Sequence record: OZ317122.1
Length of the DNA stretch: 64,000 nucleotides
Source: a phage
Direction: 5' to 3' (one strand)
Shown here: positions 1,475-40,872 of the stretch, one piece after another
Layout of the letters: the number at the start of each line of letters is the position of its first letter
Numbering within the stretch: position 1 is the first letter of the stretch
Position numbers and translations under genes: made by a program
Notes under the pieces: generated by a model
What the model was told of the DNA's origin: nothing
The model's database searches: none
Seen by the model: the letters and a program-made list of their open reading frames with translations, nothing else

Positions 1475-3155
1475 TCTTAGCTAAACTAAATCTACCAACT
1501 TTTTCCATTTGAATATGCTGACCATATTCTTGTGGGTCATGGTCTTTATGCGAAATTATGAAGAAGTTGGTATCCTTCAAACCATCTAAAATTTTAGCTA
1601 CATTTTTAATACCTTCAGCATCAAATGCACCGTCATACACTTCATCAAGAAATAAACAACTTATTTTAACACCTGAAACTTTTTCAGCAATATCACGCCA
1701 AGTAAATAAAAGAGCAATATCAATTCGCGCTTTTTCACCTTGACTGAATGAAGCATAACTAAAATCTTCACGACCACGGGATTTAATTGTCTCATTAAAT
1801 TCTTCATCTAATGTAAACACATAATCCGCTTCCATTATTTTAAGATAATGGTTAATCTGCTTATTAAATAATGGAATGTACTTTTTAATAATAGCACCTT
1901 TAATACCAGAATCTTTGAGCATATCAGTCAAAATTCCTCGGTGGTATTTTTCCATTACTAAATTAGTTTTTGTCTTAACAATTTTATCAAGTTCTTCTTG
2001 AAGCAGTGCTATTTCATCAGCATGGTCAATAAACTCAGAAGATGCTTTTTCTATAGCCGCTTTAACCTTTTTAGCTTTATCTACTGCTGCGATCAGAGAT
2101 TGCTTTTTATTGCGAATATCATTTGCTAACGACTGTTGGGTTTTAATATTATCTCGGTATTCATCAACAAGAACTTTTAAATTATCACGATGTGTTGAAA
2201 GCTGTTCAAACGAATGCGTACATTCAGAAACTTTATCTTTAATTTTAGAAACAACTTTATCACCGGAACTTAATTGTGACAAGCAGGTTGGACATAATCC
2301 ACCTTCGTGATACATATTAATGACTTTATTATACGAGTCAATTTTTGATTTAATTAAAACTGCTTCTTGACCGATTTTATTAAATGCATCAGTCGGGTCT
2401 TCGTCTAAAACAATATTAACTAATCTTTCATTAGCTTCTTCTATTTCCGATTTTAGCGTTCTAGCTTCTTTTGCCAAATCATCATACATATTTTGCAGAC
2501 GAGTAAGGTTGTCACCCGTTAATTTTTTCTGGCGTTCAACGTTATCATTATATATTTTAATTTGTTGGATAATACTATCTTTTTTAACATCAAGCACTTG
2601 GTTTTGTGAATTTAATTCGCGTATTAGTGCTTTATTAAGCTTATCCATTTCAGCTAATGTTCCTACCTCAAGCAAGTCTTCCACAAGCTTTCTTCGCGCA
2701 GGGGTCGACAAACCCATGAAAGGGGTATACCCTGCTGTACCAAGGACAACAATCTGCTTGAAACTGGCATATGACATTCCGATAAGCTGTTCAAATTCTG
2801 CTTGGAAATCTTTACTGCTGGCAGATTCATTAAGACGTGTACCGTTAACGGTGATTTCGAAAACGTTCGGTTTTTGTCCTCTTTTGATATAGTACTTTTT
2901 CTCATCATATTCCATCCACAGTTCAACTAAAAGTTCTTTCTTATTTGTGCTGTTTATTAATTGACCTTTCTTTACATCACGAAATGGCTTGCCAAAAAGC
3001 CCAAATGTGATGGCTTCTAACATAGTAGACTTACCACCACCATTTCGTCCAGTAATAAGAGTTTTTTGAACCTTATCTAATTGAATGTCAATAGGATTTC
3101 CACCTACTGACATTATATTTTGGTACCTAACTCGGTTTAGTTTAAAATTCTTCAC
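1467..3155 (-). CDS. 46: recombination nuclease subunit gp46 (Rad50/SbcC-like ATPase)
   Basis: 562-aa ORF; Walker A GRNGGGKST; long coiled-coil middle; CPTC zinc hook; first codon GTG. Confidence 0.9.
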   Translation of the reverse strand: MKNFKLNRVRYQNIMSVGGNPIDIQLDKVQKTLITGRNGGGKSTMLEAITFGLFGKPFRDVKKGQLINSTNKKELLVELWMEYDEKKYYIKRGQKPNVFEITVNGTRLNESASSKDFQAEFEQLIGMSYASFKQIVVLGTAGYTPFMGLSTPARRKLVEDLLEVGTLAEMDKLNKALIRELNSQNQVLDVKKDSIIQQIKIYNDNVERQKKLTGDNLTRLQNMYDDLAKEARTLKSEIEEANERLVNIVLDEDPTDAFNKIGQEAVLIKSKIDSYNKVINMYHEGGLCPTCLSQLSSGDKVVSKIKDKVSECTHSFEQLSTHRDNLKVLVDEYRDNIKTQQSLANDIRNKKQSLIAAVDKAKKVKAAIEKASSEFIDHADEIALLQEELDKIVKTKTNLVMEKYHRGILTDMLKDSGIKGAIIKKYIPLFNKQINHYLKIMEADYVFTLDEEFNETIKSRGREDFSYASFSQGEKARIDIALLFTWRDIAEKVSGVKISCLFLDEVYDGAFDAEGIKNVAKILDGLKDTNFFIISHKDHDPQEYGQHIQMEKVGRFSLAKIS

Positions 3156-3415
3156 AAAAGATTCCTTTTAATGTATCTTTTAGACCATTCTATCATATCA
3201 TCATAATCTAAAAAGTATTCATCAAATTCAGCCATGCAAACAACACCTTGTGCTGTTTTTGATGTAATATAAATTATTCCAACATATCTAGAATCTTCTT
3301 CGGTATAATCAATGTTTGCTATGAATTCATCATTAATGTCAAATGTCGAAAACTTCACAGTATGCATCCTTAATACAAGATACGGCCATATCTCGCAATG
3401 ATTTAGGTGTGTCAT
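3152..3415 (-). CDS. hypothetical protein (46.1 position)
   Basis: 87-aa ORF, ATG start, overlaps gene 46 start. Confidence 0.45.
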   Translation of the reverse strand: MTHLNHCEIWPYLVLRMHTVKFSTFDINDEFIANIDYTEEDSRYVGIIYITSKTAQGVVCMAEFDEYFLDYDDMIEWSKRYIKRNLL

Positions 3416-4777: not shown

Positions 4778-4800
4778 TAAAGGGCCGAAGCCCTTTATTT
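4778..4800 (-). terminator. GC hairpin with CGAA/UUCG loop directly after a-gt stop
   Basis: aaagggccgaagcccttt overlapping a-gt stop; moderately U-rich tail on minus strand. Confidence 0.4.
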
Positions 4801-5997
4801 TGTAATAATGTCAAACTGTTCTTTAAAGCAGAAGCTTGAATCTTGATGCTGATACAAAAATTCATAAGCTTTTTCGCGTTCACGGTCATAAAGAGTTCGG
4901 TCAGATGACAGTTCTTTAATACGTTCAAATGTTGATTCCATGTCATTTTCATCAAACCAAATGATACCGCTATCATGCGAGGTCAAAGGAGTATTATCAA
5001 CACGGAATTTTAAATTTTCGCCAGTAGATTTCCAAAATACCGGAATTGTTCCACATGCACCAAGCTCGAGATGAGTATATTCTAAAGAACGTTGTAGATA
5101 TTTTTTGTCCAACTTACTCAGCTGATAACCAAATCCGGATTTACTCATGCGTTCAAGCATTTCGCTATTTACATAACGGTCAAGAATTTGCGTTGGCAAA
5201 TTAGGAGCAATTTTAATTTGGTCTACTTGATGAAGACGATAATACTCGTATGGAATTCCTTTTTCTTTAATAGGAATGAACGCTGGAGAACGTTCCAGAC
5301 CTTCCATAATAGTACTTAGTCCTGCAGGTTTAAGATGTTTTTCATGAAAATCAAACATCTGATAAAAACCTTTCCATGTAGTCGTACGACCAATCCAACG
5401 GTTGATATTCATGTTAATTTCAGAAACATCTTTCCAGTAGGTTGACCGAACCTTCGCAATATCCATAGGAGGCTGAAAGTTATATACGGTCGGTGCTTCT
5501 TCAATATCATCAAACAGAGAAACTGTTTCTGGATACCATTCTTTCATCAGAACTTTATTAAAATCACCATTATCAGAATGGCTAAAAATAACATCAGCTC
5601 GACGAACAGTTTCTTCTAATCCCAAATTTCGGCGCAAAGAAAGAGAAGAATGGTCATGTTGATAAACTACAACACGAACAGAAGGTTTAATGTTATCAAT
5701 AATTTTTTTATAGTTATTAATAGTGTCTTCTTCAACCGAAGTAGCAGGAACTGAATTGATAATTAGAATATCACAATCATTTACCAGCTTAAGTGTTTTA
5801 TCGTATTCTTTTGCTAATAAAACCGGAATTGAAAATGATTTATAATCATGCGCACAATTACGAGTAAATGATTTATCTTTAGCATAAACCAAAGTTACTT
5901 CATGACCATTTTTAATAAACCAATCACGTTGCTCGAGTGAGAATTTTGTTACACCACAACCTTCAAGACCTCGAGCCATAAAAATACATACTTTCAT
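4795..5997 (-). CDS. a-gt: DNA alpha-glucosyltransferase
   Basis: 400 aa; N-terminus and overall sequence match remembered T4 alpha-glucosyltransferase. Confidence 0.85.
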   Translation of the reverse strand: MKVCIFMARGLEGCGVTKFSLEQRDWFIKNGHEVTLVYAKDKSFTRNCAHDYKSFSIPVLLAKEYDKTLKLVNDCDILIINSVPATSVEEDTINNYKKIIDNIKPSVRVVVYQHDHSSLSLRRNLGLEETVRRADVIFSHSDNGDFNKVLMKEWYPETVSLFDDIEEAPTVYNFQPPMDIAKVRSTYWKDVSEINMNINRWIGRTTTWKGFYQMFDFHEKHLKPAGLSTIMEGLERSPAFIPIKEKGIPYEYYRLHQVDQIKIAPNLPTQILDRYVNSEMLERMSKSGFGYQLSKLDKKYLQRSLEYTHLELGACGTIPVFWKSTGENLKFRVDNTPLTSHDSGIIWFDENDMESTFERIKELSSDRTLYDREREKAYEFLYQHQDSSFCFKEQFDIITK

Positions 5998-18271: not shown

Positions 18272-19159
18272 TTAAGATTTAAGTAAATCAACAATTTTAA
18301 TTAACTTTTCACGCTCAGATTTAGCTTTACTACTCAATCCAGATAGTCTGAAAATTTCATCATCATATTGTTGAATAGAAATATTCAGCTCTTCAATCTG
18401 TTTATTAAAATAATCAATTTGTTCAGAATGTTTTTCGTTACTACGAACTGGTACAGGTTTTGTAGGCAATTTAGTTGAACTGGATTCATCCGGGCGATAA
18501 ATTAAAATACAATTTGAACCAATCGGGCATTTAGCACCAGACACATATTCTAGTGTTCCAGCTTCTTTTAAAACTTCAAAAGCTAAACAAAGATGATGAC
18601 CCATATTGACATAATCTGTAGAGTGAGCTCTGATGTAATAATCATCTCCACGAGTACTAAATTTAAAGCATTTAAGGTCTTCTGTATTATTGGTCTTAAA
18701 AATCATTTGTTTATCTAGACCTTTAGCTAATCGAGCGCCTAATGCTAATAATCGTCGTTGATTTTCCCACAAATCCGCAATCATTTGGTCAAATGATAAT
18801 TTCGGCATTAGTCGACCATAAAGGTCATATCCTTTATTATAATTGCGAAGGATTTCACTCGCATTAATACGAGACAACGCTCCAATTTTATTAAGGGCTT
18901 TCATGATGCGATTAGATAAACCCATTCCAGATCCGTTTGTTCGTTGCAAATGTTTATCTAACCCAAACCCAATATCAACTTTAAATTTATCTAAAATTTC
19001 AGCATGAACATCTCTGTCAATAACATTCAAATCCAAAGTTGGGTTAAATCTATGAAAAAATTTATCTGGCTCTCCACGACGAAGTACAGTCCATTCATTT
19101 AATTTTTTATTAACTAAAGATTTAATTACTGCATTGACATTATTAATTACTACTGACAT
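18272..19159 (-). CDS. coiled-coil-tailed protein, paralog family member 4
   Basis: Trimmed to ATG at 19157-19159; weaker central motif LWENQRRLLALGARLAKGL; coiled-coil tail. Confidence 0.5.
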   Translation of the reverse strand: MSVVINNVNAVIKSLVNKKLNEWTVLRRGEPDKFFHRFNPTLDLNVIDRDVHAEILDKFKVDIGFGLDKHLQRTNGSGMGLSNRIMKALNKIGALSRINASEILRNYNKGYDLYGRLMPKLSFDQMIADLWENQRRLLALGARLAKGLDKQMIFKTNNTEDLKCFKFSTRGDDYYIRAHSTDYVNMGHHLCLAFEVLKEAGTLEYVSGAKCPIGSNCILIYRPDESSSTKLPTKPVPVRSNEKHSEQIDYFNKQIEELNISIQQYDDEIFRLSGLSSKAKSEREKLIKIVDLLKS

Positions 19160-31590: not shown

Positions 31591-32007
31591 TTAAATGTAA
31601 ATATTTTTGCCGTAATACTTATACCAGTGTGGCTTCATTAAAATTTTTTCATCGAGTCGTTGTTGACTCAACTTAATAGCTGATTTGCATGGATTATAAT
31701 CATTTTTCCATTCTACTGGAATATCGCTGATGTCAGGAACTTCAGTATCTTTTATACTGAACCCGCGTTTTAAGCATTCCGTTATAATGTCCGATTGACG
31801 CTTTCGCAAAAATTCTAACTTATCGTAAAAGAAAGTAACATGACCAGAACCTAAAATAAATTTAGAAGATATTTTAAAATCTTTAACGCGCTTACCGTTT
31901 GCCACATGCTTACGAACTATACCAAAAACACGCGGCAATTCACGGTATTCTGCGATTAAATGTTGATCAGCAAGTTCAGATACTAAAGTCAAATTAATAC
32001 GAGTCAT
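31591..32007 (-). CDS. denV: endonuclease V (pyrimidine-dimer DNA glycosylase)
   Basis: 138 aa; [17 protein letters not shown]...; matches remembered T4 endo V. Confidence 0.85.
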
Positions 32008-32021
32008 TTTATCCCTCCAAG

Positions 32022-32597
<576 letters not shown>

Positions 32598-35517: not shown

Positions 35518-35694
35518 TTATACTCCGGATAGTTTGTAAACTATTTCAACATCGCCTTTTGCTGCTTTATAACCTTCAGCCCAAGATACAACCGAGTTTT
35601 TATCCGAAGATTCAAATTCTGGCATTGGGCTTTCGCCAATGTTCACGCAGTATGTTTCTTCATTTTCGTCGAACCAAATAATTAAAGTAGTCAT
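35518..35694 (-). CDS. small acidic protein (58 aa), below ORF-track cutoff
   Basis: Hand-translated MTTLIIWFDENEETYCVNIGESPMPEF... Confidence 0.3.
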   Translation of the reverse strand: MTTLIIWFDENEETYCVNIGESPMPEFESSDKNSVVSWAEGYKAAKGDVEIVYKLSGV

Positions 35695-35763: not shown

Positions 35764-36027
35764 TTATTTCATATTATTGAAATATTCTTCTGCGATTTCA
35801 TCGTTATCATGGTAAACTTTAGAAGACAGTTTAACATAACCTTCAGCAGTGAACATGTTAATCACAACCTTTACAGTATACCACTGACCATCTTCATTAC
35901 CCATTACTGCATAGGTTTCAAACATCGGATGGTCAGGACCGATAACTTTAATATCATTCACTGTACGACCGAAATCTTCTGAAACACATTTCATAAAGAA
36001 GTTGAACAGTTCGCCGTAATTATCCAT
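35764..36027 (-). CDS. hypothetical protein
   Basis: Trimmed to ATG at 36025-36027 (GGAGA upstream). Confidence 0.45.
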   Translation of the reverse strand: MDNYGELFNFFMKCVSEDFGRTVNDIKVIGPDHPMFETYAVMGNEDGQWYTVKVVINMFTAEGYVKLSSKVYHDNDEIAEEYFNNMK

Positions 36028-36064
36028 TTCATTCTCCAAGTTGTTTTTGTATCAGTAGTTGATA

Positions 36065-36115
36065 GTTGTATAGTACCATGGAAGAACAGGGATGTAAACA
36101 GTTTTGTGAAAAAAT
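36065..36115 (-). promoter_or_regulatory. T4-type early promoter
   Basis: gttgatagttgtatagtaccatgg...gtaaacagttttgtgaaaaaa signature. Confidence 0.6.
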
Positions 36116-36231
36116 TTTTTAAAAAGTTTTAGGGAATTCTAGGGCAGGGAGGGGCAATTAAAAGATAGGATAATATATTATAAAGGGTAGAAACTAAATG
36201 ATGTCTAGAGAGGCCCGGAAAGGCCTAGATA

Positions 36232-36261
36232 CCAAAAAGCCCCAACCTTTTGGTCGGGGCT
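36232..36261 (-). terminator. rho-independent terminator
   Basis: Minus-strand RNA gccccgaccaaaagguuggggc followed by UUUUU; near-identical to 36790..36819. Confidence 0.7.
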
Positions 36262-36268
36262 AAGAATG

Positions 36269-36742
36269 TTATTTGATTTGTTTAGCAGACCAAATGCGGT
36301 CTTTAATAATTTTTTGGATGTCTTCAACATACTCAAGAGAGTGAACATGTGGGTTATCTTTGAAACTATAAGCACGAGCTAGCTTTTGGCCTTCAGTTTT
36401 GATTACTAAAAGCTCTTTAAGGATAGCTTCATATTTGGAGATAATTCCTTTAACAATATTTTTCTCTTGTGTGACTTTAGGATCTGCTTTAGGAGCAGGT
36501 TTACCTGAAGCCTTTGCAAAAGCAGCTCCAGTAGCAACTAAACTTTTCCAAGCCATACTAACTGCATTCCCTGTAAATCCTTCGGCTTTCATATCACGAG
36601 CAAATTGGAATCGTGATTCATCGGAAGCATCTTTATAGGAATATTTACCCGCGGCAATGGCAGCTTTTGCAACAGCTTGAATTTCAGTGCTAGATGCTTC
36701 ATTTAACACCGCTTCATTTAAAAATTGAGTATATGATTTCAT
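36269..36742 (-). CDS. internal-protein-like capsid-targeted protein (157 aa)
   Basis: N-terminus MKSYTQFLNE resembles T4 internal-protein leader with LxE protease-site motifs; own late promoter; flanked by terminators. Confidence 0.55.
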   Translation of the reverse strand: MKSYTQFLNEAVLNEASSTEIQAVAKAAIAAGKYSYKDASDESRFQFARDMKAEGFTGNAVSMAWKSLVATGAAFAKASGKPAPKADPKVTQEKNIVKGIISKYEAILKELLVIKTEGQKLARAYSFKDNPHVHSLEYVEDIQKIIKDRIWSAKQIK

Positions 36743-36778
36743 CTTATTTCCTGTTTTAATTCGGGGTTTTAATATACT

Positions 36779-36786
36779 TATTTATA
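36779..36786 (-). promoter_or_regulatory. late promoter TATAAATA
   Basis: Plus-strand tatttata about 37 nt upstream of ATG at 36742. Confidence 0.6.
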
Positions 36787-36789
36787 CTA

Positions 36790-36819
36790 AAAAGCCCCAA
36801 CCTTTCGGTCGGGGCTAAG
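36790..36819 (-). terminator. rho-independent terminator ending the tRNA/stable-RNA transcription unit
   Basis: Minus-strand RNA gccccgaccgaaagguuggggc followed by UUUUU. Confidence 0.7.
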
Positions 36820-36820
36820 C

Positions 36821-37131
36821 CTTGCGGCAACCTTGTCGGGGTTCCACCTGCTAAGGCAAGTGTTTGTACGAAACGCCGGGATTCGAACCCGGTTATTAAG
36901 CAGTTGACGCTACTCAATATTTTTAAAAGGCCATATCTCGACCATATCCGAACGTTCCGTCAAAAACGCTACTCGGCTTACGGCAAAGATATTTCCTCGA
37001 ATCGATAATTCGGTGCGCCGTTTCTGCTGTGATATAAGGGGACATTAACAAAACATAAAGATTTATTAATACCAGTCCTTAAACAGGGAACATCAGTCCG
37101 ACGACTTGCCGGTAGCGACCCGGCTTCTTGT
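36821..37131 (-). ncRNA. candidate stable RNA region between tRNA-Arg and terminator, containing a tRNA-like T-arm
   Basis: No ORF; minus-strand ccgggTTCGAATcccgg with pairing flanks cggaacg/cgtttcg but no proper anticodon arm. Confidence 0.3.
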
Positions 37132-37207
37132 CTGGTCGAGGCAGTAGGGATCGAACCTACGACCCAGGACTTAGAAGGTCCTTGCTCTTCCTTCTGAGCT
37201 ATGCCTC
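37132..37207 (-). tRNA. tRNA-Arg (anticodon TCT)
   Basis: Cloverleaf: acceptor CGAGGCA/TGCCTCG, anticodon loop CTTCTAA, T-arm GTAGGTTCGATCCCTAC, CCA encoded. Confidence 0.85.
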
Positions 37208-37211
37208 GTAT

Positions 37212-37286
37212 TTGGCGGACGTGATAGGATTCGAACCTATAACCAATCGCTTAACAGGCGATCGCTCTGCCATTGAGCTACACATC
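37212..37286 (-). tRNA. tRNA-Asn (anticodon GTT)
   Basis: D-stem GCTC/GAGC, anticodon stem ATCGC/GCGAT with loop CTGTTAA, T-arm ATAGGTTCGAATCCTAT, CCA encoded. Confidence 0.8.
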
Positions 37287-37290
37287 CAAA

Positions 37291-37377
37291 TTGGTGGGGA
37301 GTGGTGGAGTCGAACCACCCGAGTCGCAATGACAATGGATTTACAGTCCACACCGCTACCTCTACGGGATAACTCCC
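37291..37377 (-). tRNA. tRNA-Tyr (anticodon GTA), long variable arm
   Basis: Anticodon stem GTGGA/TCCAT with loop CTGTAAA; T-arm GGTGGTTCGACTCCACC; 87 nt; D-arm pairing less clean. Confidence 0.7.
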
Positions 37378-37387
37378 CAAATTAATT

Positions 37388-37462
37388 TGGTGGCCCTGGG
37401 TGGAATTGAACCACCATCTGGCGATTATGAGTCGCTTGCTTGAACCTTCCAGCTACAGGGCC
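37388..37462 (-). tRNA. tRNA with CAT anticodon (Met or lysidine-type Ile, as T4 tRNA-Ile)
   Basis: Anticodon loop CTCATAA; T-arm GGTGGTTCAATTCCACC; CCA encoded. Confidence 0.8.
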
Positions 37463-37463
37463 T

Positions 37464-37539
37464 TGGTGCTGATTGACGGAATCGAACCGCCGACCTTCTC
37501 ATTACAAGTGAGTTGCTCTACCTACTGAGCTAAATCAGC
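37464..37539 (-). tRNA. tRNA-Thr (anticodon TGT)
   Basis: D-arm TAGCTCAGTAGGTAGAGC, anticodon loop CTTGTAA, T-arm GGCGGTTCGATTCCGTC. Confidence 0.85.
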
Positions 37540-37544
37540 AAAAC

Positions 37545-37634
37545 TGGCGGAGGCGATAGGATTTGAACCTATGAGTCGCCGGAGCGACTGCCGGTTTTCA
37601 AGACCGGTGCATTAAACCACTCTGCCACGCCTCC
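37545..37634 (-). tRNA. tRNA-Ser (anticodon TGA), long variable arm
   Basis: Anticodon stem CCGGT/ACCGG with loop CTTGAAA; long variable arm; T-arm ATAGGTTCAAATCCTAT. Confidence 0.85.
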
Positions 37635-37636
37635 AG

Positions 37637-37710
37637 TCTCCGTGGCAGGATTTGAACCTACGACATTCTGCTCCCAAAGCAGACGCTCTACCAAACTGAG
37701 CTACACGAAG
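37637..37710 (-). tRNA. tRNA-Pro (anticodon TGG), 3' CCA not encoded
   Basis: Anticodon loop TTGGGAG; acceptor CTTCGTG/CACGGAG; only 2 nt separate it from tRNA-Ser. Confidence 0.8.
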
Positions 37711-37720
37711 TAAATTAAAT

Positions 37721-37794
<74 letters not shown>

Positions 37795-37799
37795 AAATT

Positions 37800-37886
37800 T
37801 GGTGCGAGAAGTGGGACTCGAACCCACAAGGAAATCATTCCGCAGCATTTTAAGTGCTGTGCCTTTACCAATTTGACCATTCTCGC
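37800..37886 (-). tRNA. tRNA-Leu (anticodon TAA), long variable arm
   Basis: Anticodon stem CAGCA/TGCTG with loop CTTAAAA; T-arm GTGGGTTCGAGTCCCAC. Confidence 0.85.
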
Positions 37887-37892
37887 GCTATA

Positions 37893-38501
37893 TTATTTAT
37901 TACGTGAAAAAGACTGTTCTATCAATTCTGGACACTTTCGTTCTATCCATTTTCTAGCTTTTTGTGGGCTTATACCTATTATTTTAGCAGCTTTACTAAC
38001 CCATCCAAATTTAGAATAATCGATTTTAACTAATTCTTCGTAAATTTCATCAGTTAAAATCTTTTCATTAATATTTACCAGTAAATGATATAATTTATTA
38101 TCATTAGCAATTTTAATGAATCTTTTATAGTTTCCGCCTTTACTTAAACCTAATGAAGTAATTGCAGATGATATAGTAGCCGAATTTAATAGTGCGTTTA
38201 AAATTTCTTCATCACTAACATTATAACGCTTTCTATTATTTTTAATATTTTTACCAGCAAAAGTATCAGTTTGCGAATGGCAATTTGGACATAATAATCT
38301 TAAATTTGATTTAAGATGATTTTTGTTATTTCCATCAATATGGTCTAATTGTAGAACAATATGCTTATTTTGCCATTTTGAAATTTTACAAATTGCACAC
38401 TCATATGGAAAAATATTTTCTTTTATTATTTTGTCTTTTAGCTTTCCTGTACTAAAATTTGGATGTTTTCCTTCAAAAATTTCAGCTAATTTAGTATCCA
38501 T
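37893..38501 (-). mobile_element. freestanding HNH homing endonuclease adjacent to tRNA cluster
   Basis: HNH/zinc motif LDHIDGNNKNH...LRLLCPNCH; trimmed to ATG at 38499-38501; stop 7 nt from tRNA-Leu. Confidence 0.7.
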
Positions 38502-38611
38502 AATATGATTCCCAATTATTAACAAAGGCTCTTAAGCAAGAACCCTTGATGATAGAGGGTATTAATCAGTGCGATATGAGTTAATAATAACAAATAATTC
38601 TTAAAGCATAT

Positions 38612-38902
38612 TTACCATTTATAATAATAATACATATTTACGATGCATTCAAGACCCAAAGGATTCTTGAAAATATCATATTCAAGAGGACCTTTTTCTG
38701 TTTCAATAAAGAAATCAAAATTTACTGTATTAAATTTACGTTCTTCCTTCACTAATTTAACTTGAGAAGATGAACGGTCAATGTAAACCTTTTCAACTTC
38801 AAAACATGTTAAAATGCCATAATCATTAATCAAAGCTTTAGCCGCGTCTTGATCATATTTATATCCATTTTCAATGGATGATACTTTCGCATAAAGAATC
38901 AT
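38612..38902 (-). CDS. hypothetical protein
   Basis: 96-aa ORF, ATG start. Confidence 0.4.
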   Translation of the reverse strand: MILYAKVSSIENGYKYDQDAAKALINDYGILTCFEVEKVYIDRSSSQVKLVKEERKFNTVNFDFFIETEKGPLEYDIFKNPLGLECIVNMYYYYKW

Positions 38903-38904
38903 TA

Positions 38905-39303
38905 TCAGCCTTCATCAACAATAGTGTGAGTATTAGCATTTACGATTTGCCACCAATCAAAGCGATTAGAATCCATCGGTTTGTTTTCATTTTCTTTGAT
39001 AATGTCACGGAGTTCATCTTCAGAGAATGCTTTAGCAATTAAATCGGTATACCCACCACGGGGATAATAATTATCACCTGCAAACAAAAGGAAATTTACC
39101 TTCCCGGAAGCAACATATGCTTCCTTAGGATACTTGTTTCCTGCGTGGTCAACCACTTCAATATAACGGTAAGGAATATCGGTTCTTTCAACCCATTGCC
39201 ATGCCGCCGCAGGGGAATCGAAAGCATCTACACCTAAACGATTATCTTCATCTTTAGACGGATTATTTTCGTAATCCGCATATACATAATATTCAACGTT
39301 CAT
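38905..39303 (-). CDS. hypothetical acidic protein
   Basis: 132-aa ORF, ATG start. Confidence 0.45.
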   Translation of the reverse strand: MNVEYYVYADYENNPSKDEDNRLGVDAFDSPAAAWQWVERTDIPYRYIEVVDHAGNKYPKEAYVASGKVNFLLFAGDNYYPRGGYTDLIAKAFSEDELRDIIKENENKPMDSNRFDWWQIVNANTHTIVDEG

Positions 39304-39488
39304 TATTCACCTTTAGAAATTTTATCCATAACAATAGCAATTAAACCAATTAAAAATGCTACTACAAGTGAAAACACATTTTCTGCTGTAGTCAATAATC
39401 CACATATAAATCCAACAAACATTGAAAAACTAAAAGCGGAAGCAGAAATTGCAATAGCAACATTTCGAATTAATTCACAACGTTTCAT
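39303..39488 (-). CDS. small membrane protein
   Basis: 61 aa, two hydrophobic helices. Confidence 0.45.
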   Translation of the reverse strand: MKRCELIRNVAIAISASAFSFSMFVGFICGLLTTAENVFSLVVAFLIGLIAIVMDKISKGE

Positions 39489-39507
39489 TTTATTCTCCTC
39501 AGTAGTA

Positions 39508-39560
39508 GATAGGGTAATAGTATCACTACCCTATCTAAAAGTAAACTTATTTTTTACGAA
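39508..39560 (-). promoter_or_regulatory. T4-type early promoter with -10 region inside a 7-bp inverted repeat
   Basis: gataggg taatagtatcacta ccctatc then gtaaac at 39541. Confidence 0.5.
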
Positions 39561-39780
39561 AAATTGATTTATTTTCTGCTGCCCATTTTTCAATAACTGC
39601 AGCAGGACCAGTAACAACAATTTTATCACCGTAATCTTCTGCGGCGAGTTGACCGAAATTATCTAATGCATCACGAAGAACTCCATGAGGCATTTCACCC
39701 ATTTTATCTTTCTTGCCAGTGTAAATAAACTCAACTTTTACATCAGCAGTTTCAGCAATAAATTCTTGGTAAGTTTTCAT
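39547..39780 (-). CDS. internal-protein-like capsid-targeted protein (77 aa)
   Basis: Starts MKTYQEFIAE, the canonical T4 internal-protein leader with IAE protease-site motif. Confidence 0.6.
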   Translation of the reverse strand: MKTYQEFIAETADVKVEFIYTGKKDKMGEMPHGVLRDALDNFGQLAAEDYGDKIVVTGPAAVIEKWAAENKSIFRKK

Positions 39781-39807
39781 TTTGATTTCCATTTGGTTTT
39801 GTTTTGA

Positions 39808-39865
39808 TAGGGTAATAGTATCACAACTAAAACCCTATGTAAACAACTTTGTGAAATTATTTTAA
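39808..39865 (-). promoter_or_regulatory. T4-type early promoter
   Basis: atagggtaatagtatcacaactaaaaccctat then gtaaacaactttgtgaaattattttaaatc. Confidence 0.5.
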
Positions 39866-40114
39866 ATCTTCTAATCGTTTCTTCATCTTAGAACCATTTT
39901 TAGCAATTTCTCCTGCATCGGAGCATAATGCTAAAAGTGCTTTAACTTTAGTTTGGTCTCCTTTAAAAGATGAAGGATCGACCGCAGCAGCAAGTTCTTT
40001 AATACGAGAGAAAAGACGCTCAGCTTCAGCTAAAGCCATTCCAAGCTTTACTTCCATACCGTGGGAAGATTCAGTGATAGTAGTTTTTGTAGCAAACTCT
40101 TTGAAAGTTTTCAT
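39857..40114 (-). CDS. internal-protein-like capsid-targeted protein (85 aa)
   Basis: Starts MKTFKEFATKTTITE; AGGAAA ribosome-binding site. Confidence 0.55.
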   Translation of the reverse strand: MKTFKEFATKTTITESSHGMEVKLGMALAEAERLFSRIKELAAAVDPSSFKGDQTKVKALLALCSDAGEIAKNGSKMKKRLEDLK

Positions 40115-40139
40115 TTTTATTTTCCTAATTAATTTTGAT

Positions 40140-40872
<733 letters not shown>

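Follow-up and report, generated by a model that had tools for sequence, protein, structure and literature searches.

Three short open reading frames (ORFs) of a T4-like coliphage, a T2/T6-like Tequatrovirus, begin with what resembles the leader of the T4 internal proteins (IPs), which raises the question of whether they encode proteins that are packaged into the phage head and injected with the DNA to overcome host restriction, and whether any of them is new. In T4, Ip1, Ip2 and Ip3 are inhibitors of GmrSD type IV enzymes, each acting on a different one (PMC12373910), and the internal proteins as a group have been described as diverse defence proteins having only a capsid-targeting sequence (CTS) in common (PMC3012670). 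Based upon the evidence presented below, we consider it quite probable that all three ORFs are genuine T4-type internal protein genes, whose products are injected with the DNA and act against host restriction. Two of them, ip5 and ip6, are already known, while the third, which we refer to as orf157, is a candidate internal protein gene that lacks annotation and resides at a new site in the genome.

Identification of three leader-bearing genes

The window (i.e. the entire 64,000-nucleotide stretch of OZ317122.1 analysed here) originates from a T2/T6-like Tequatrovirus, and its positions 36000-40700 share 99.7% identity with fFiEco06 and PYPS2T and 97.9% with Bas37. The three ORFs of the original prediction are found precisely where it had placed them (36269-36742, 39547-39780 and 39857-40114), all on the minus strand and with exactly the N-termini it had quoted. 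Its assignment of these N-termini to the T4 internal protein leader is equally well supported. A six-frame scan for ATG-initiated ORFs of at least 30 aa that open with the pattern ^MK[ST][YF].[EQ]F yielded exactly three matches in the window and none in any of 100 shuffles of it, while the same pattern retrieved ipI, ipII and ipIII exactly from a 13-kb control locus of T4. Genome-wide, the CTS inventory consists of these three ORFs and one 54-aa ORF located elsewhere. As had also been proposed, each ORF encodes, among its first ~20 residues, an L/I-x-E motif with a small residue after it, namely IAE↓T in Ip6, ITE↓S in Ip5 and LNE↓A twice in orf157 (arrows mark the predicted cleavage sites). 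The mature portions were said to be unrecognizable and they proved to be so: Ip5, Ip6 and orf157 matched no family in a Pfam search, a PDB sequence search returned no relatives of the mature parts, and comparison with IPI*, Ip2 and Ip3 revealed no similarity past the leader. Similarity of the mature parts to IPI*, Ip2 or Ip3 is not truly a defining trait, since Ip1, Ip2 and Ip3 are mutually dissimilar as well.

Several steps can be envisioned for the function of these proteins. Following the T4 paradigm, the N-terminal CTS would direct the precursors to the scaffolding core inside the prohead, the prohead protease gp21 would make a single cut in each behind the L/I-x-E Glu, and the mature proteins would remain in the DNA-filled head to enter the cell together with the DNA. 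The CTS MKTYQEFIAE is itself in experimental use, and T4 packages foreign proteins that have been given no more than a CTS (PMC8442874, PMC3012670). Once inside the cell, the proteins would act immediately, prior to phage gene expression, as specific inhibitors of type IV restriction enzymes, modification-dependent enzymes that attack DNA containing hydroxymethyl- or glucosyl-hydroxymethyl-cytosine. This last step has been demonstrated for a single gene, and the preceding three are modelled upon T4.

Ip5 and Ip6 occupy the ipI slot

The ip6 gene (39547-39780, minus strand) encodes a 77-aa internal protein precursor, as judged from its ORF, its identity to Bas37_0260 (77/77 residues) and its match to PHROG 8111, 'internal virion protein' (E 1e-52). 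Although the ORF listing extends to an upstream ATG at 39792, a GGAA Shine-Dalgarno sequence is only found before the ATG at 39780, which is also the ip6 start annotated in relatives. Ip6 is present in 246 phage records, and that of T6 is 98.7% identical to the protein of the window. Its leader, MKTYQEFIAE, is identical to the CTS of T4 IPII and IPIII, and predicted cleavage after E10 would release a mature protein of ~67 aa with a predicted pI of 6.5, a near-neutral value that departs from the basic internal proteins of T4.

It is for Ip6 that a function has been reported. Genetic evidence from phage Bas37, which encodes the identical protein, has shown that Ip6 counters McrBC, since deletion of Bas37_0260 yields a McrBC-sensitive phage (HIDEN-SEQ preprint 2025, bioRxiv 10.1101/2025.11.20.689424). 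In the same preprint, insertions in Bas37_0260 were depleted ~30-fold on K-12 BW25113 relative to five UPEC strains, the text reports no such depletion on a delta-RM K-12 host, and the gene is non-essential in the reference library, with insertions at 15/15 TA sites. The original proposal of injected anti-restriction proteins is thereby supported for Ip6 and agrees with the literature on T4 Ip1-Ip3; for orf157 we infer such a role. In contrast, the novelty it had attached to these genes was overstated, as Ip5 and Ip6 were named in 1994 and bear internal protein annotations in the genomes of relatives, leaving only orf157 unannotated.

The second known gene, ip5 (39857-40114, minus strand), is identified from its ORF and its identity to Ip5 of RB15, and encodes an 85-aa internal protein precursor. 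The RB15 sequence, deposited in 1994, is 100% identical to that of the window. The Ip5 leader, MKTFKEFATKTTITE, is akin to the longer leader of IPI (MKTFKEF...ITE), and predicted cleavage at ITE↓S, after E15, would leave a mature protein of ~70 aa with a predicted pI of 9.2. The Bas37 ortholog, Bas37_0261, is likewise non-essential in the reference library, having been hit at 18/18 TA sites, and its insertions exhibit a log2FC of -2.09 (adj p <1e-5) on UPEC CFT073 in pooled transposon data as opposed to a clean deletion, with values of ~0 on four other UPEC strains, such that the defect is confined to CFT073 (bioRxiv 10.1101/2025.11.20.689424). On the basis of these fitness data, Ip5 would counter a barrier present in CFT073. 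Conceivably, this barrier could be a defence other than restriction, or the effect could be a polar or neighbourhood effect within the 57B-ip5-ip6 operon. The adjoining 57B/Acb1 gene, too, has an ortholog that is depleted on CFT073 (-1.56, adj p 0.003), the preprint pairs no CFT073 defence system with Ip5 (bioRxiv 10.1101/2025.11.20.689424), and the pooled nature of the data would be compatible with either explanation. However, ip5 is situated downstream of 57B under a promoter of its own, which means that an ip5 insertion cannot silence 57B. Furthermore, all of the characterized members of the group (Ip1, Ip2, Ip3 and Ip6) target type IV restriction enzymes, and RB15, which encodes Ip5 without IPI*, grows on a strain carrying the CT596 GmrSD, which restricts T2 (Table 3, PMC4437046). 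A cause unrelated to restriction is consequently somewhat unlikely, and we favor Ip5 as an anti-restriction protein.

Both genes reside in the T4 ipI slot between 57B and trna.4, in keeping with the expectation that internal protein loci are hypervariable cargo sites. The slot contains three copies of a PeSL-type repeat on the minus strand, recognized as a repeat family and, for the first two, through a promoter scan. The copy upstream of ip5 (40133-40203) comprises the early promoter TTTACA-17-TACTAT and a stem-loop, and matches the PST/T4 PeSL consensus TTTACW-N17-TAYWAT (PMC4122927); the upstream regions of ip5 and T4 ipI are identical. Another copy separates ip5 from ip6 (39802-39872), and a degenerate third copy (39504-39574), downstream of ip6 and before trna.4, retains 61% identity to the reference copy along with a stem-loop that is still readable in the sequence. 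The other classical locus, between denV and e, had been described as empty with only about 60 bp remaining, and this is indeed the case. On the minus strand, the denV-e junction measures 59 bp (32008-32066, with denV at 31591-32007 and e at 32067-32561), whereas the T4 interval of 1148 bp contains ipII and ipIII. Similarly, denV directly adjoins e in Bas37. The differing IP sets of related phages can be attributed to recombination-prone cassettes, with PeSL repeats in the ipI slot and direct repeats of a terminator hairpin at orf157.

The e.8-rnaC cassette of orf157

The orf157 gene (36269-36742, minus strand) encodes a 157-aa candidate internal protein, delimited from its ORF and its match to PHROG 2280, a family of unknown function (E 2e-60). 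It lies outside of both the 57B-trna.4 and denV-e IP loci and has a cassette of its own, flanked by e.8 and rnaC. Repeat and terminator scans of the minus strand identified two 36-nt direct repeats, 94% identical and spaced by 555 nt. The upstream copy (36784-36819) is an intrinsic terminator hairpin (10-bp stem, then a T run), which ends the tRNA/rnaD/rnaC unit, and the downstream copy (36229-36264) directly follows the orf157 stop codon. These hairpins delimit a 555-bp cassette that T4 lacks; in T4, the hairpin is present once, and both flanks of the cassette align to the e.8-rnaC gap. The cassette contains no PeSL element. Its T4-type late promoter, TATAAATA (36779-36786, minus strand), ends 36 nt upstream of the start codon, and the same sequence is kept 5' of the orthologs in Bas37, fD1, RB27 and Klebsiella phage phiKp_22, with AATAAATA at this position for the JK45 ortholog. 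It is a perfect promoter placed after a terminator and kept across genera.

The orf157 leader, MKSYTQFLNEAVLNE, has two LNE↓A sites, and predicted cleavage after E10 or E15 would yield a mature protein of 142-147 aa (~15.5 kDa, predicted pI 9.6), which is predicted to be all-helical with two domains and resembles IPII and IPIII in its basic charge. The gene is carried by 512 phage records, and the 60 matches listed are labelled 'hypothetical protein' or 'Phage protein' or have no annotation, none being called an internal protein. The leader and the cleavage Glu are kept in all full-length orthologs, among them proteins of Klebsiella and Yersinia phages with ~50% identity, and the Glu is invariant across the family alignment. 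Diverged orthologs begin with MKFKEFLAE↓A, MLEYSEFLKELFCE↓A or MLKFNEFLAE↓G, each combining the leader with an L/F/M-x-E site. Within the family, the N-terminal domain is kept, and different genera carry exchanged C-terminal halves. In an AF2 model (pLDDT 75), the leader is of low confidence and forms a segment set apart from, and ahead of, the folded domains. Foldseek against the PDB gave a best E of 1.3, a BFVD structure search returned only the protein's own family, a PDB profile search produced no match, and HMMER against 1.8 billion representatives found only T4-like phage proteins and Ig-repeat artefacts. No structural, enzymatic or housekeeping family was therefore matched in Pfam, PDB, Foldseek, BFVD or HMMER searches, including the structural or housekeeping families that would have spoken against the original prediction.

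Data from relatives provide further context. In phage fD1, the ortholog g140 (155/157 identical to orf157) was detected in purified virions at a strict LC-MS/MS threshold, and the IPI-like g146 was likewise flagged as particle-associated. This detection is weakly specific, as the same proteome flagged 672 host proteins as well as 113-137 of the 277 phage proteins, rIIB among them. In Bas37, the ortholog Bas37_0244 is non-essential in the reference library, with 29/34 TA sites hit (bioRxiv 10.1101/2025.11.20.689424), as would be expected of an accessory internal protein. Its insertions had no fitness effect on K-12 BW25113, CFT073, CFE299, CFE303, CFE331 or CFE336 (log2FC -0.30 to +0.39).

Some of these features could suggest that orf157 is packaged mainly as a bulk basic filler or DNA counter-ion that replaces the missing IPII and IPIII, rather than as an inhibitor of defence. 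The phage lacks ipII and ipIII, orf157 is the sole large basic CTS protein of the genome inventory and approaches IPII and IPIII in mature charge and mass, its dedicated late promoter is reminiscent of structural genes, and none of the six hosts reveals a host-specific phenotype. Nevertheless, the gene is dispensable in Bas37, and RB27 encodes orf157 alongside IpI and Ip4. In addition, the exchange of the C-terminal half next to a kept N-terminal domain looks more like target-driven diversification, and the abundant basic IPII and IPIII of T4 themselves proved to be specific GmrSD inhibitors, from which it follows that filler and inhibitor roles are not mutually exclusive. We therefore regard a principally bulk role as unlikely. 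That orf157 might instead be a late cytoplasmic protein, which is never encapsidated and owes its leader-like N-terminus to recombination or a shared translation-initiation region, would suit its position outside the classical IP loci in a different regulatory context, the lack of internal protein annotations among the matches listed and the weakly specific mass spectrometry, but is highly improbable given that the leader and L/F/M-x-E↓A site are kept in the protein despite strongly diverged DNA, that a CTS alone packages foreign proteins in T4 (PMC8442874; PMC3012670) and that the AF2 model sets the leader apart from the folded domains.

As an injected protein, orf157 would add to the class a member that had not been annotated before, encoded in a third separate cassette under its own late promoter. 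The e.8-rnaC site of Bas37 carries a second CTS gene, Bas37_0243, so that the site behaves as a third IP locus. It is tentatively possible, albeit short of being our expectation, that e.8-rnaC represents a third, unrecognized internal protein locus of the T-even phages and orf157 a modular injected effector against a defence that is new to internal proteins. If so, the locus would consist of a late-promoter cassette with a terminator hairpin, duplicated, at either end, and the effector would combine a conserved N-terminal three-helix domain, a Lys/Pro linker and an exchangeable C-terminal helical hairpin. As a separate observation, Bas37_0243 scores as essential, which hints at functionally important injected proteins in the e.8-rnaC locus.

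Comparison with known internal protein systems

Among the known systems, T4 IPI/IPI*, the inhibitor of the CT596 GmrSD, is the closest parallel to Ip5 and Ip6. It shares their slot and the sequence upstream of ip5, is similarly small and non-essential with the same predicted mode of action, and has the long leader type in common with Ip5. In contrast, T4 encodes one gene in this slot rather than two, there is no similarity past the leader, and IPI* targets GmrSD, whereas Ip6 targets McrBC. T4 IPII and IPIII (Ip2 and Ip3), which inhibit the ECOR21 and ECOR17 GmrSD variants, share an identical 10-residue CTS with Ip6 and basic mature parts with orf157, and are accessory and host-specific. Their mature parts are unrelated to those of the window proteins, their denV-e locus is empty in the window, and they are expressed from a PeSL early promoter as opposed to the late promoter of orf157.

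The Ip5 of RB15 and Ip6 (Repoila et al. 1994) are the same genes as ip5 and ip6 of the window, and Yersinia phage PST (IpV/IpVI) and fFiEco06 (ip5/ip6) exhibit the same ip5-ip6 arrangement. In RB15, Ip5 is instead partnered with Ip9, Ip7 and Ip8 rather than Ip6, which illustrates the shuffling of these cassettes. The McrBC inhibitor Bas37_0260 does not differ from Ip6 of the window at the protein level. Lastly, ip5 and ip6 are flanked by three repeats of the type that defines PeSL cassettes (Arbiol 2010; Comeau 2014), whereas the cassette of orf157 has two copies of an intrinsic terminator hairpin at its boundaries and carries a late promoter.

Three minus-strand ORFs with T4-type leaders

The original prediction placed three ORFs with the leaders of T4 internal proteins (IPs) at 36269-36742 (157 aa, hereafter orf157), 39547-39780 (77 aa) and 39857-40114 (85 aa), and all three are present there, on the minus strand, with the N-termini quoted. 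When the leader pattern ^MK[ST][YF].[EQ]F was required at the start of an ATG-initiated ORF, it had three matches across all six reading frames of the window, against none in 100 shuffles, and at the T4 control locus it recovered ipI, ipII and ipIII exactly. The assignment to T4-type leaders likewise holds, as the 77-aa ORF begins with MKTYQEFIAE, the very T4 capsid-targeting sequence (CTS) used in experiments (PMC8442874), while the leader of the 85-aa ORF is of the longer, IPI type and ends in ITE. The anticipated cleavage motif, L/I-x-E followed by a small residue, lies within 15 residues of the start in each protein, and the remainders proved as unrecognizable as claimed, with none of the three having a Pfam family or a solved structure by sequence. 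Between denV (31591-32007) and e (32067-32561), where T4 carries ipII and ipIII, there is a gap of just 59 bp, in agreement with the stated empty position. In the rest of fFiEco06, our proxy genome, the strict pattern yielded only one more CTS-like ORF, of 54 aa. This ORF, gp034 (18556-18720 of the fFiEco06 stretch L004, outside the window), adjoins the primase gene, is annotated as hypothetical and begins with MKTYKEFIKEDMVAGD, which resembles a CTS leader and contains an IKE motif.

Over the 4.7 kb around the IP genes, identity is 99.7% to Escherichia phage vB_EcoM-fFiEco06 and Yersinia phage PYPS2T and 97.9% to Escherichia phage KarlGJung (Bas37), all of them Tequatrovirus, and the window corresponds to fFiEco06 31127-95088. 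The minus-strand gene order is that of T4, namely 2, 3, 1, 57A, 57B, the ipI slot, trna.4-.2, a homing endonuclease, nine tRNAs, rnaD and rnaC, continuing after rnaC with orf157 and a T4-like series from e.8 to nudE, e and denV. Homologs of the T4 stable RNAs lie at 36867-37005 (rnaC, minus strand, 98.6% identity) and 37012-37128 (rnaD, minus strand, 85%); two ORFs overlapping them (36756-36917 and 36923-37051), which are CDS gp135 and gp136 in fFiEco06 and have their own PHROGs, are probably spurious. The nine tRNA genes (37133-37886) do not include tRNA-Gln, whose position in T4 and fFiEco06, directly after tRNA-Leu, is occupied by a 210-aa HNH-type homing endonuclease ORF (37893-38525, minus strand; weak Pfam HNH match), and the same insertion is found in Bas37. 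Within the e.1-e.8 accessory block, a 58-aa ORF (35518-35694, minus strand) stands as a small replacement at the position of the 111-aa T4 e.7; the Bas37 orthologs of e.6 and e.5 (0240 and 0239) are strongly depleted on strain CFT073 (log2FC -6.49 and -3.62). The alpha-glucosyltransferase is encoded at 4798-5997, and a beta-alpha-glucosyltransferase is attributed to the phage by proxy through fFiEco06 and Bas37; by the same proxy, the two enzymes indicate DNA modification of the T2/T6 type.

Ip5 and Ip6

The ORFs of the ipI slot are annotated as ip5 and ip6 in fFiEco06 and as ipV and ipVI in Yersinia phage PST, and the PHROGs matched by their products bear the names internal head protein and internal virion protein. 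Ip5 of phage RB15, whose GenBank entry, also containing Ip9, Ip7 and Ip8, dates from 1994, has the same sequence as the 85-aa protein (100% identity). Ip5-like proteins occur in 497 records, including a subfamily of <60% identity that, among the matches listed, adjoins gene e. The 77-aa protein, present in 246 phage records, shares 98.7% identity with a protein of T6. Three copies of a ~71-nt element flank the two genes, each of which contains a stem-loop and TTTACA-17-TACTAT, whose -10 is extended, and these fit the consensus published for the early promoter/stem-loop elements (PeSLs) of the T4/PST pair; modular shuffling at the IP locus is proposed to be PeSL-driven (PMC4122927). T4 ipI is preceded by exactly the sequence found upstream of ip5. 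As packaged and processed internal proteins, Ip5 and Ip6 are well supported, and we regard this assignment as very probable.

Internal proteins are packaged by means of their leader, cut once and injected with the DNA at ~1000 molecules (PMC8442874, PMC3012670). IPI* inhibits the GmrSD of CT596 (PMC4437046), IPIII is required for growth on ECOR17, and a 2025 paper found that Ip1, Ip2 and Ip3 each block a different GmrSD and no other, proposing type IV enzymes as the targets of all proteins from the two Ip loci (PMC12373910). According to the HIDEN-SEQ preprint of November 2025 (10.1101/2025.11.20.689424), disruption of bas37_0260 strongly reduces fitness on E. coli K-12 BW25113 but not on K-12 without McrA, McrBC and Mrr, and its clean deletion is specifically McrBC-sensitive. 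The bas37_0260 protein is identical to Ip6 of the window at 77/77 residues, and the supplementary table of the preprint, from which we took the fitness values of all three orthologs, gives it a mean insertion count of 8.4 on BW25113 versus 227-340 on five uropathogenic strains. Ip6 probably shields incoming, partly unglucosylated hmC DNA from McrBC; the protection was reported in a single preprint, albeit for an identical protein. The ortholog of ip5 (0261, 85/85 identical) is depleted on CFT073 (log2FC -2.09, adjusted p <1e-5), with values of -0.13 to +0.26 on CFE299, CFE303, CFE331 and CFE336. Ip5 probably counters a barrier specific to CFT073, for which a type IV enzyme would be the obvious candidate.

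Directly upstream of ip5, gene 57B (40188-40646, minus strand) encodes the anti-CBASS nuclease Acb1 (Pfam PF23474, E 2.7e-60), labeled 'RNA ligase' in the related RefSeq records of fFiEco06 and T4. Since 57B is Acb1 and its ortholog in Bas37 shows depletion on CFT073 as well (log2FC -1.56, adjusted p 0.003), the 57B-ip5-ip6 stretch is a small anti-defence island.

orf157 as a candidate internal protein

orf157 belongs to PHROG 2280 (unknown function) and was found by tblastn in 512 phage records; all 60 of the matches listed are 'hypothetical protein', 'Phage protein' or without annotation. Among 5.8 billion proteins and 1.8 billion cluster representatives, its relatives are confined to T4-like phages of Escherichia, Shigella, Salmonella, Yersinia and Klebsiella. 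Four long bacterial matches were rejected as Ig-repeat artefacts. They came from an exhaustive HMMER search (E 1e-4 to 1e-6) that scored long Ig/cadherin-repeat proteins, in which a short motif repeated 4-5 times inflates the E-values; tandem repeats can artificially raise the significance of whole-sequence E-values.

A leader followed by [L/F/M]-x-E and then [A/Q/G] is present in all full-length orthologs, for example (slash, predicted cleavage) MKTYNEFLMTE/A, MKSYAEFLTE/Q, MKFKEFLAE/A, MLEYSEFLKELFCE/A and MLKFNEFLAE/G, and the cleavage Glu is invariant across an eight-sequence alignment. The predicted mature protein (142 aa, 15.5 kDa) has a pI of 9.6, compared to 9.56 for T4 IPII and 9.65 for IPIII. 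An AlphaFold2 model from the same alignment (mean pLDDT 75) predicts a leader helix of low confidence (residues 4-12), followed by a domain of three helices (18-71), a disordered Lys/Pro linker (72-87) and, at 88-154, a long hairpin of helices. In Yersinia phage fHe-Yen9-01 and in Klebsiella phages, the orthologs align over the N-terminal 60% only and have different, longer C-terminal parts; orf157 is therefore modular.

orf157 forms a late unit that is complete in itself. After the terminator hairpin ending the tRNA/rnaD/rnaC transcript (36816-36793, minus strand) come a perfect late promoter, TATAAATA (36786-36779, minus strand), a Shine-Dalgarno sequence and the ORF, and the unit closes with the same hairpin in a second copy (36261-36238, minus strand). 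Terminator and TATAAATA are kept upstream of the orthologs in Bas37, fD1, RB27 and Klebsiella Jiaodavirus phiKp_22, and JK45 has AATAAATA in place of TATAAATA. In fD1, the ortholog g140 (155/157 identical) was particle-associated at the strict threshold of a virion LC-MS/MS study, which is weak support for packaging because roughly half of the phage proteins were flagged there (PMC8309999). The conserved leader and site, the late unit, the basic mature part and the detection of g140 all support an internal protein, and packaging of orf157 is likely. An anti-defence role is plausible, at somewhat below an even chance. The main rival is that the protein serves mainly in a bulk or DNA-associated role. 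The Bas37 ortholog of orf157 (0244, 154/157 identical) is non-essential, with 29/34 TA sites hit, and showed no significant fitness change on any strain in the table (log2FC -0.30 to +0.39).

Discussion

Earlier publications cover the internal-protein class and its loci as well as how these shuffle and the hypothesis of an anti-restriction function. The original prediction of new anti-defence effectors overstated the novelty of two of the three genes, which were already named and one of them functionally characterised. New is that the orf157 family is recognised as a CTS-bearing candidate internal protein, encoded at a third locus in a late-promoter cassette of its own. On Ip5 and Ip6 the window adds little, apart from a concrete lead to the importance of Ip5 on CFT073. 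Host immunity encounters internal proteins before any other phage molecule, and they help to determine the host range of the T-even phages used in therapy. Type IV restriction targets are now identified for four members (Ip1, Ip2, Ip3 and Ip6), so that any further CTS protein offers a ready tool for probing a restriction enzyme not yet characterised. The window also brings to notice the orf157 family, which is widespread, bears all sequence hallmarks of an internal protein and lies outside the counted IP loci.

The e.8-rnaC site holds an additional, unrelated 187-aa gene with the CTS leader MKTYAEFLTEAAK in Bas37 (Bas37_0243), contains other genes in JK45 and is empty in PST; with contents differing among phages, it behaves as a third variable internal-protein locus. 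Bas37_0243 (2768-3331 of the Bas37 stretch L002; absent from the window) adjoins the orf157 ortholog, has the leader MKTYAEFLTE/A and was scored 'Essential' in the HIDEN-SEQ reference library (1/48 TA sites hit), which is unexpected for an internal protein; in the passages searched of the preprint's main text (10.1101/2025.11.20.689424) we found no discussion of this. The two hairpins around orf157 form a 36-nt direct repeat (94% identity, spacing 555 nt), whereas T4 has a single copy. The 284-bp e.8-rnaC gap of T4 aligns to both flanks of the cassette with the hairpin common to both alignments, as would be expected had the orf157 cassette been gained or lost through recombination between the repeats.
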